Of a stretch of 64,000 bases of DNA, positions 48,059 through 57,118 are shown one piece after another. The notes under the pieces were generated by a model. The model was given only the letters and a program-made list of their open reading frames with translations. It was not told where the DNA came from and made no database searches. Position numbers and translations under genes: made by a program. Numbering within the stretch: the stretch's first letter is position 1; each line of letters starts with the position of its first letter. Source of the DNA: Okamejei kenojei (lineage: Eukaryota); assembly GCA_035221665.1 (NCBI GenBank), contig CM069138.1:73532001-73596000 (forward strand). Reading direction: 5' to 3'.

Positions 48059-48072
48059 GTATGATGCTGAGC

Positions 48073-48083
48073 GTCAAGGAAAA
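48073..48083 (-). promoter_or_regulatory. U12 branch-point sequence TTTTCCTTGAC
   Basis: Matches the U12 consensus TTCCTTRAC. The A at 48074 lies about 15 nt from the terminal AC. Confidence 0.9.
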
Positions 48084-49764
48084 TCTACGGAGCATTTATG
48101 GGAAACAACACTGTTTGAAGAGAACACTTCTGCTGAGCAATGTCTTGGTGACCCTCTGAAAAGACTAAATAAATTAAAACTAACCAACATCCCCACATTC
48201 AAAGTTGAAAAGAAGGTACACAACATTTTAATTATTTTGAATGTGCACTACTATTACCCCCAGACATAAATCAGGAGAAAACAGAAATAATGCACTGTCT
48301 ATAGATTAATAATAATGGATACAACACTTACAATCATCACAAGTCTTACAGTGTTGTTACTTCACTGATAAAAGCTGCAATATTCGAGAAGAAATGAAAA
48401 CAACTATTATATTGTGTCAGAATAAGACAACTGACATTACAATTTAACAAGTTAGCTGGCGATGCAAAAGAAACTCACAAAACAAATAAGGGCATTATTA
48501 TAAAGTTAAAAATTAAACATCTTTGCTCATAGCAGAGAACACAGTATGCCTAGAAACCTTGCACAGAGAGGTTAGCGAGTAGATCTGGAGATATCTGACC
48601 TACGCAGGGGTACTGAACCAAGATGTATGAAAGGTTCGTTTTCTGACAGACAAAGAGCCCCCAGGGGCCAGCTGATAATTTTTTTTTCCTTACATTGATA
48701 AAGAAACCTATTTATCTGCAAATATTATTACCCTTCAGCTCTGTAGACAGAAGCTTCCTAAAATAGTTCCCAGGAGAAAGTTTAATGCGAGGCTAACTGT
48801 AACAATCTAGCAATTCTGTTTTTCAAATAGCTTCCTTGGCACTCTTTTGTGCTTTGTGCATTAGTAGGGTTTTGGCACATCTGCGCTGCTGTTTGCCCAC
48901 CATTTCCTCCACAAATTAATGGCTTTATAATTTATCAGAAATGAAGATGCATGTGGAGAAAATCAATATGGGCCCCGGAAGGTCAATTAAGGGGTGCTTT
49001 CCAGAAGTTATTCCAAAGGGTATTATATTGAAGATTACATTTAAGAGCAAAAATGTTGTTAACTTCCATGGCTACACAAGTCATTTTGAAAAGATCTACT
49101 AATTTATTTGAGGAGAAATCATTGTAAATGGAGATCCTATCTGAGTGAACAAACTCTTAAGCAACTCGATCAAGCTGATGCTTTGTATTTCGAAAGCTTA
49201 ATGATGGCTAAGATGATAACTCATGATTGACATGCTTCTTGTACCAAGAGGGAAGAGTTGAAAAACCTTCTGTGACCTCCATTAGACTGATAGGGAAGAC
49301 TAAAAGAGCATTACACTCTCCACCGCCATCTGTCATAATGCATAAGTGAAATGACGATGGCAAATGAAAGGAAGTATAGCAAGCTGTTCTGCAGTGGCAC
49401 ATGAAGTGCCGAGAACTAAAAGAATCAATGCCTGCCTGCGCTGAAGGAAATAATGGAAGGACGGGAAACAGATAGAACTTTCAAAATGCTTTAAAGATGC
49501 AAACTAAATATTGCAAGGTAGACATTACCATATGGAAAACTGCTGACTTGCAAGGATATCATCTTTTGAACTATATCCCAATTTAAATTCCTATTCAGGA
49601 ATGCACTCCTTTAGAATCCATTTGTCAGTTTCAGTTCAAATACAATAATTTAAAAACCAACTGGTGAATTCTGACGTACCCAATCCAGATTACTGAAGGA
49701 AGACTACTGGGAAAGAGAGATTAGAGTTGAATGAATTGACAATATTAGAATATTAATACAGGAA

Positions 49765-54000: not shown

Positions 54001-57000
54001 CCTGCCCAATCTCACTTTGTGGAAAAGAAATGTCAAAGAGGGAGCGCCCAATGCTTGAGCTACCAAATGTACACCATTGTTATCGAGTCATCCCAGCTGG
54101 ACTCCAAATTTAATCCCAGGTCCCTCTTGAAATTATCTGGTTAGAGTTATGTTGGCAGTTGAAATACCACCATTGGTCTCAGTGCTCCAAGCCAAGGGAG
54201 AAAACAAATCAAGCAAATTTGCCGCCTGCAGCAAAAAAAATATGCATGATTGTTAAATGAAGACAGTATAGGGTTCTGCAATGATCATGAAATAACATGC
54301 CTGCACATATTACTCAAGCTGGTTCAAGAAGAATGGTTATTTTCCATCGCACCATTATTGTCCTTGGGACTATACCTCAAGATGAATAATTATATTTAGA
54401 GATGACAGAAAAGGAAAAAAATGGTAGACGACACAAAGCAATGTAAAGAGTGAGCATATGAACAGCTGCTGACATGTTATGTCATTTTGATTTCCTCAGT
54501 CATTTATAGGATTTGGAATCTGCGTAATACATTTGTAAAAATTACATTTGACAAAATTGCAAATTTATATGTTCGTTCTTTAAATGCTATGACATATGAT
54601 TATCAAATCATATTAAATGCAAACGGAAAAGAAAATTAAATCACAGCATTTTTGAGAGTTCTTATAACAACCTTAATAATTAATAAATACATCGTATTAA
54701 TGAAATACTTCATTTTTTAAACAATGTTGGGTAACTGCTACTTTGCCCAACTTGCTTCTAATATGAACTACAAAAAGCAGCTTAAAATCATGCTACACCA
54801 AAATTGATGTCACTGCTTCTCACAATAATGTAAAGCAGAACTGACCATTTTCCCTTTTAAGTGCTTACGCTAAAAGCAACTGTTCTCTCAAGAAAGCTCT
54901 GGCTGTTTCTAGGATACTTACACACGCACAATGACTCATGTTGGAATAGATTTTGTAAACATACAGCTGCACAGAATGTGAGCACAGCCCATTCAAGGCC
55001 AGAAGAAATGAGCACAAATAAATATTAAGGAGGTAAGAAAACGTACAGCTCTGTCCCAGCAGCTCATGTGGCTCACCTCATTCTTTTAGCTTCAGCTTTG
55101 TTAAGACAGATGACATTCAATTCTACATGTCATGCAAAATAGACAATAACTGCTGAAACTTGAGCCAGCTGCCAGGTGTAAAAAAAAGAAAAGATGATAA
55201 ATCCATAAATTAATGAAAGACATCTGCTCAGGAAAATAAAAGATCAGAGAAATACTGCACTGCAGCTGAACCTAAAGCAGTATTCAAACACCACACGAGT
55301 TTGTGTGTAAGCTGCATACAGAGTTTTTACAAGGCAAATATGTAGAATTACCTGAGAGGCAGATGAGTTATGTCAGTGCAGGACAATATAAAATTGTACA
55401 ATTGGATTAAAGACAGCAGCAGTGTAACTGGAACATTGCCATTTTTCAATTCAGCCTGAGAAGACTTTTTAAATCCATCCTTGAGATGGACAATAAAGTT
55501 TTGTTTAAAAAAAATAATCAAAGCAGCATTTGCTTTATGTATCACTGTATGTCTATTGCTGCCAGAAAATAATTATTACAAAATTTGTGATCGAGTAGAT
55601 AATTGCAGAATTTTAAGTACAATTTCTAAATTCCATCTTGTTCAAGTTATCATCTTTTGCATTATTCCATATCATATGTAACATAATCTTAGTTACCAGA
55701 TTACTCGCAATTAAATATTTTGGCACGGGACCAATGTTTGAAAGCATTAGAACTCGATTGTAGTTTCACTCCGCCTGGTTCCTATTTATTATATTTTAGT
55801 TTATAACTCTAGGTGTCCTCTTATTTTTTGTTAGCTCCATGGAGATTGAATGTACTCATCCACTAGCCTTGCCCCAAGCAGTAGCTCAGCTCCAATGTGC
55901 TGTGTATTCTACAAGGTTATTTTCTTGAGATGCAAAAGGAGGGTTGTGTCATGGAGGATCAAGGCTGAAATCTTGAGACAGCCATTCAACTGTTTCCTTT
56001 AACATTAGGGTTTGGGATGGTGGTGGGATGTGGTGGGATAAGGAGGGGACGGGGTACAGTAAAGAACCCCAGTCTAATTACTATGGTTCTATTCACGAGC
56101 TTGCAGAATATTTTGCCATTATGTTAAAGTAACTGAGATGCAACTGTGTGCAGTTGGACGTAATGGGTTTTAATACAATCATAATCTTTCTAGTTCAATA
56201 AGTACAAAATAGTACACAGTAAAAGTAATTTCTCTTTTTGAGGACAATAAATTATTACTATGGGAGTGAAATGGCTGAGCATCCTCTATTAGCTTAGCCA
56301 AATACCTGAAAATTCCTACAACATACTCCAGTCCAAAATTTGTGTATAGAGTAGGTCAAAATAAAGGGCAAGCAATATGTATCTTAATGTAACTTTCAAG
56401 GTAAGGTAATAAATTCATAGTTGCAATTTAAAAAGTGCATTTTCGTCACCTTTGAAATATGTAACTGGCCATTAAATTCACGAAACACCACAGAGTGCTG
56501 CTAAGCAACAATAAATGGTGCCGTATGTTACTGACTCCTGTCAACAAATCTTTATAGCAAAAATAGAAGCTCTATTACTTCAACAAAGTGATAGGATAAA
56601 ACAAAAGGAAAAGCTGTTTTGAAAACTGGCACTGAAATAAGAAAAATTGCAGTTGATGCACCATTTTGATACTTCATGAAATATTTTTGAGAGTTATCTG
56701 TTTGAAAAAGGGGGAAAAAAAGTACAGTAAACCTTGTGAAAGAAGTTCAGTTTAGCTGAGCCCACTCTGATTGTGCTCACAAGCTTTTAAAATCATTTGC
56801 TTTGTATATACAAGGACAAAAGATTTCTGTGTACAGCTGAACAGAGGTTAATCATGCATAGCAGGCAGCTGCACTGAACTTGCAGAACAGTAAAGGGTGG
56901 GGGTGATGCACTTGTTGCATCTTCAGTGTCTGGGTTATCCAAAAACAGGTAATAACAGTTTAAAAAAAAAAAAAAAAAGACTGGACCCCTTGCTTAAAGT

Positions 57001-57118
57001 TCAACTCAATTCTATTGAGTCTTTGCGATGCCACGGGGACAATATGGGTGAAAACTTGGAACTCTTTTTAGTTGCATATACCTATTTAAGACACTAAAGA
57101 ACAATCAGTAAAGGATAT

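Follow-up and report, generated by a model that had tools for sequence, protein, structure and literature searches.

The prospero/PROX1 AT-AC intron in the skate Okamejei kenojei and its relation to the homeo-prospero domain

Introduction

PROX1 acts in fate decisions of lymphatic, lens, liver and neural cells. In the skate Okamejei kenojei, an intron of about 9 kb with AT-AC termini directly precedes the exons that encode its DNA-binding domain, which raises the question of whether this intron acts as a gate on PROX1 or is simply an old minor intron that is spliced as a matter of course. If the gate reading were true, minor-spliceosome activity would be tied to a major developmental regulator. 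We analyzed the locus in a window of 64,000 nucleotides (contig CM069138.1, positions 73,532,001 to 73,596,000), in which PROX1 lies on the minus strand; positions below are those of the window unless a locus is given. The reading that we favor, with a probability of about 0.93 on the sequence evidence set out below, is that 48059-57118 is intron 2 of skate PROX1, the local copy of the ancient prospero/Prox AT-AC intron, and is likely spliced routinely by the U12 spliceosome.

Results

The PROX1 gene and its AT-AC intron

The large first coding exon of PROX1 (exon 2 as Lin et al. number the human gene) occupies 57119..58898 on the minus strand, with an open reading frame of 571 codons from the ATG at 58831. 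It is preceded by an AG acceptor ending at 58899 and, over the whole exon, shows 99% identity to PROX1 of Amblyraja radiata and 98% to that of Rhinoraja. Exon 3 (47951..48058, minus strand, 108 bases) begins the homeo-prospero domain, covering positions 1-33 of PF05044, and is followed by an ordinary GT donor. Its product aligns to the solved human PROX1 domain (2lmd) from residue 13 with an E value of 6e-18, and also to the fly structures 1xpx and 1mij. Exon 4 (38050..38244, minus strand, 195 bases) carries PF05044 positions 34-98 and has GT-AG introns on both sides, the one separating it from exon 3 being 9.7 kb long. The last exon was located ~23 kb beyond the window edge (G000:C8:73508541-73508726).

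The last PROX1 intron also contains a 51-base, in-frame cassette exon bounded by AG and GT (19804..19854, minus strand), which matches the isoform X1 model of A. radiata. The cassette is intact, and its inclusion would add 17 residues within the Prospero domain. A match to a cassette exon of the Rhinoraja model is found at ~30116-30175 (minus strand), yet it has an in-frame TAA in the O. kenojei genome. An open frame of 243 codons at 34843-35574 (minus strand) resembles the C-terminal portion of a reverse transcriptase from a CR1-like LINE. Finally, a stretch of ~40 bases at ~48145-48105 (minus strand), just upstream of the branch site described below, has by eye a near-identical copy at 47490-47445 in the next intron, ~660 bases away.

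Between exons 2 and 3 lies an intron of 9,060 bases in phase 0 (48059..57118, minus strand), delimited by its splice signals and by the joins in homologous proteins. The U12-type 5' splice site ATATCCTTT (57110..57118) begins at 57118 and abuts the exon end at 57119 exactly, the branch site TTTTCCTTGAC occupies 48073..48083 with the likely branch A at 48074, and the terminal AC acceptor (48059..48060) is read directly in the sequence. Twelve bases of mixed sequence separate the branch site from the AC, placing the intron end 15 bases from the branch A. U12-type introns are described as having a 5' splice site of the form (A/G)TATCCTT, a branch site complementary to U12 snRNA, an optimal branch-to-acceptor distance of 11-13 bases without a polypyrimidine tract, and AT-AC or GT-AG termini (PMC3584512). 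The PROX1 intron agrees with this description in its donor, branch site, spacing and termini, and the host genome carries minor-spliceosome genes. The donor, branch, AC acceptor and in-frame join proposed in an earlier sequence-only reading were all found on the minus strand at the positions it gave, in phase 0. The intron is 35% GC and holds a 179-base run of N, within which the bases are unreadable.

The 3' end is well constrained. Nine candidate ends (AC, AG or AT) occur within ~30 bases, three in frame and six out of frame. Exon 3 regains the residues aligned with the solved human domain, starting at residue 13 of that domain, only if it begins at 48058. The in-frame AG acceptors at 48052 and 48049 were rejected as intron ends, since they would lose two to three residues that are retained in PROX1 proteins. 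The junction has a 3-base repeat, so that aligners can slide it: a shift of 0-3 bases leaves the mRNA unaltered, and AT...AC termini appear only at the unshifted placement. The location in the PROX1 gene, in phase 0 and right ahead of the homeo-prospero exon, is that of the prospero/PROX1 intron-2 orthology group.

We compared the signals with chance expectations from 40 order-3 Markov simulations. The 9-mer ATATCCTTT occurs three times in the window on both strands against an expected mean of 1.1, so this motif by itself proves little. A complete branch-plus-AC pattern was found a single time, where 0.075 were expected, and the rough joint chance of both signals falling within 10 bases of homology-defined exon ends is 4e-8. 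The two other exact 9-mers, at 19689 (minus strand) and 25041 (plus strand), are tied to no known exon and are probably chance occurrences. The context of the other ATATCCTT motifs in the window, these two positions included, was read (19689, 49559, 31207, 22737 and 14273 on the minus strand; 25041 and 53718 on the plus strand), and they were taken as chance, none being tied to an exon.

Minor-spliceosome machinery

Searches of the O. kenojei genome above the Rfam cut-offs returned one match for U12, four for U11 and 46 for U6atac (best E 2.9e-30); an Rfam scan of window positions 50000-59500 gave 0 matches. The U6atac-like matches are spread over several contigs (the best being L015-L017) and are mostly weak; the weak ones may be pseudogenes or repeat-derived. 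Predicted pairing of the skate's own snRNAs, computed without a shuffle control, gives 11 bp between U12 and the PROX1 branch site with one base bulged, 7 bp between U11 and the donor including one G-U pair, and 6 bp between U6atac and the donor. From the established minor-spliceosome mechanism, the donor would pair with U11 and later with U6atac, the branch site would pair with U12, and the AC 12 bases downstream of the branch site would be selected by distance. Removal of the intron would then place the homeo-prospero domain in frame behind the long N-terminal exon.

The join in homologous protein models

We surveyed the join in the best 120 of 749 homologues found, of which 116 could be anchored and four could not. 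The predicted six-residue join is present in 74 of these 120, other joins occur in 34, and eight read through or lack the join. Among PROX1 proteins of cartilaginous fish, 21 of 25 have the predicted join, and in the remaining four, including Leucoraja erinacea, it is two residues longer. Half of the ten Logan-only proteins (691-738 residues) also have it. Their contigs, at 2.5-6.4 kb, are too short for such an intron, and we therefore infer that the five come from transcripts of other vertebrates after splicing.

Among the deviant joins, six teleost models are shortened to KG, and in four bird models translation continues across the apparent branch region, a pattern that would fit forced GT-AG predictions. 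The junction is thus often wrong in gene models, with 42 of the 116 anchored models among the best 120 homologues deviating from the common join. The warning that GT-AG-only predictors would mis-annotate this intron is accordingly plausible, as judged from protein models rather than from DNA. In frogs (homologues P0028-P0031) and other amphibians, the standard join coexists in the models with one that is longer by two residues, which suggests a second acceptor six bases upstream. One frog has both joins among its annotated isoforms; thus, an alternative acceptor is either real or mis-called in some species. The minor-intron data of Olthof et al. (PMC6717393) score mouse Prox1 at 100% for both alternative 5' and alternative 3' sites, which may reflect aligner slippage at the ambiguous junction.

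The paralogous intron in PROX2

The same genome contains a PROX2 paralogue, 93% identical to PROX2 of A. radiata, with a U12 intron of ~11.1 kb in the same place and phase (G000:C9:14898293-14887188, minus strand; L004, L002). The two introns share position, phase, the U12 donor core (TATCCTTT within the PROX2 donor GTATCCTTT) and a U12 branch site, CCTTAAC in PROX2. They differ in length and at both termini: the PROX2 intron starts with GT, and at its old end CA stands where AC stood, with the first usable AG six bases further on, a shift that would cost two residues. Predicted pairing with U12 is also weaker, at 6 bp against 11 bp for the PROX1 branch site. The skate PROX2 intron is therefore likely of the GT-AG subtype of U12 introns, whereas the PROX2 minor intron of human and mouse keeps an AT donor in the data of Olthof et al. 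(PMC6717393).

To judge from protein models, this state has a patchy distribution. Among 31 PROX2-like proteins of cartilaginous fish, 11 have the shortened join (seven in rays and skates, four in carpet sharks) and nine the full-length join. Four show a VSF read-through that corresponds to a GT-type donor (three proteins of the skate cluster and Rhincodon), and three an ISF read-through of the AT type (Pristiophorus, Heptranchias and Heterodontus). The remaining four comprise three aberrant Callorhinchus models and one more full-length join. The models suggest one or two switches from AT-AC to GT-AG. They also hint at the same change in carpet sharks, perhaps independent of that in rays, with AT retained in other sharks. 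The pattern is not clean, because full-length joins also occur in three rays (two Mobula and Pristis) and in one carpet shark (Hemiscyllium). Subtype switches of U12 introns are described as uncommon (PMC2831892, PMC3584512), and our literature search found nothing on the U12 subtype of PROX2. With PROX1 as AT-AC and PROX2 likely as GT-AG, the skate genome would offer a tidy natural example of such switching.

Consequences of intron retention

Read-through of the PROX1 donor reaches an in-frame TAA at 57086..57088 (minus strand) after 10 codons. The product has 581 residues, ends in ISFTDCSLVS and matches no Pfam family. PF05044 is encoded wholly in later exons, and the sequence-only reading was correct that retention would add ISFTDCSLVS and a stop and lose the whole homeo-prospero domain. 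The stop precedes at least two later exon junctions, as is typical of transcripts targeted for decay, and unspliced copies would likely be retained in the nucleus or decay. The tail starts with ISF because the donor ATATCCTTT encodes these residues in phase 0. A read-through starting with ISF was seen in nine of the 116 anchored models among the best 120 of 749 homologues. Past ISF the homologue tails diverge in sequence and length, and the tail therefore shows no signal of selection.

Discussion

Without removal of the PROX1 intron no DNA-binding domain can be made, as would be true of any intron in this place. A stronger reading is that the intron forms a regulated gate, in which retention or intronic polyadenylation, under tissue or signal control, turns PROX1 off or yields the 581-residue protein without a DNA-binding domain. 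Its position directly ahead of the entire homeo-prospero domain would suit such a role, as would the proposal that minor introns are rate-limiting (PMC3584512). The sense strand of the intron also carries 13 AATAAA hexamers, the first ~1.3 kb past the stop, although such hexamers are expected anyway at 35% GC (an expectation without a control run). The read-through tail is not conserved beyond the ISF that the donor itself spells. In the mouse data of Olthof et al. (PMC6717393), neither Prox1 nor Prox2 is among the 150 retained minor introns, whereas the control Pcyt2 is, and Prox1 is absent despite expression at ~7-9 units in cerebrum, liver and testis. That list demands more than 95% intron coverage, a filter that disfavors long introns, so the absence of Prox1 is moderate evidence; the same source reports that longer minor introns are less retained. 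A pan-eukaryotic survey favors the neutral persistence of minor introns (PMC10639083). Our literature search, with subscription papers largely outside its scope, returned no account of regulated retention of the PROX1 minor intron and nothing linking prox1a with rnpc3. Taken together, we consider a regulated gate very improbable, and the term "gated", as applied to this intron in the sequence-only reading, goes unsupported. A more specific version is, in our estimate, a shade less probable still. Here, limiting minor splicing in vertebrate development would lead to intronic polyadenylation and to a cofactor-only or dominant-negative PROX1 of 581 residues without the DNA-binding domain. Such a form would keep the N-terminal LxxLL-like motifs LRKLL and ISQLL seen in the sequence, which we take to be nuclear-receptor boxes.

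A different route to a second product is known from insects, where the fly prospero orthologue is a twintron (PMC2831892, PMC3291851, PMC3584512). Were a GT-AG intron to lie within or next to the skate U12 intron, a further isoform would result whose homeodomain starts differently. The in-frame AGs at 48052 and 48049 could serve as acceptors, and some homologue models do show other joins, although these look like forced GT-AG predictions. By a simple 9-base match, the sole U1-like donor in the 460 bases scanned (6/9, at 57081) lies past the stop, and no U2-like donor of at least 6/9 was found near the junction ahead of it. The twintron form is, moreover, restricted to insects according to Janice et al. 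(PMC3291851). We therefore rejected a prospero-type twintron in skate PROX1, where the 9-base match gave no nested donor before the stop, and regard the wider idea as the least probable of those considered. Routine splicing of an inherited AT-AC intron thus remains the preferred reading, under which any influence on PROX1 output would come from the general slowness ascribed to minor introns and not from a dedicated switch.

Comparison with known orthologues

The skate intron is known biology, in that its orthologue is already published for human, mouse and fly. Fly pros and human PROX1 are an orthologous AT-AC U12 pair in Table 2 of Lin et al. 2010 (PMC2831892), which bears out the earlier suggestion of an ancient intron shared with prospero. 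The human intron also appears as U12 in the supplement of the TALS study (PMC6800510). In U4atac mutant flies, prospero intron 2 serves as a positive control for retention (PMC13550442). According to Janice et al. 2012 (PMC3291851), only two minor introns, the PROX1 intron being one, occur in every insect and vertebrate genome of their analysis. The implied rarity of the skate intron is not supported, since the human and mouse orthologues are catalogued at ~7 kb. At these lengths, and next to a neighboring intron of similar size, 9 kb is ordinary for PROX1; across species, minor intron length follows that of major introns (PMC10639083). Finding it in O. kenojei places a textbook intron in a skate, and the value of this lies mainly in annotation.

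Intron 2 of human and mouse PROX1 resembles that of the skate in gene, place before the homeodomain exon, U12 branch site, several-kb length and the ATATCCTTT donor, which the MIDB of Olthof et al. 2019 (PMC6717393) gives for both species. It is shorter, at 6,904 bases in human and 6,998 in mouse compared to 9,060 in the skate. The human branch site reads TTAAC where the skate has TTGAC, with G for the first A, as in the MIDB entry for PROX2. In tetrapod proteins the join reads SA|MQ, in contrast to NT|IQ in the skate. Drosophila prospero intron 2 is likewise an orthologous AT-AC U12 intron at the homeodomain start. In contrast to the fly twintron, we found no nested in-frame U2 intron in the skate, and read-through there stops after 10 codons.
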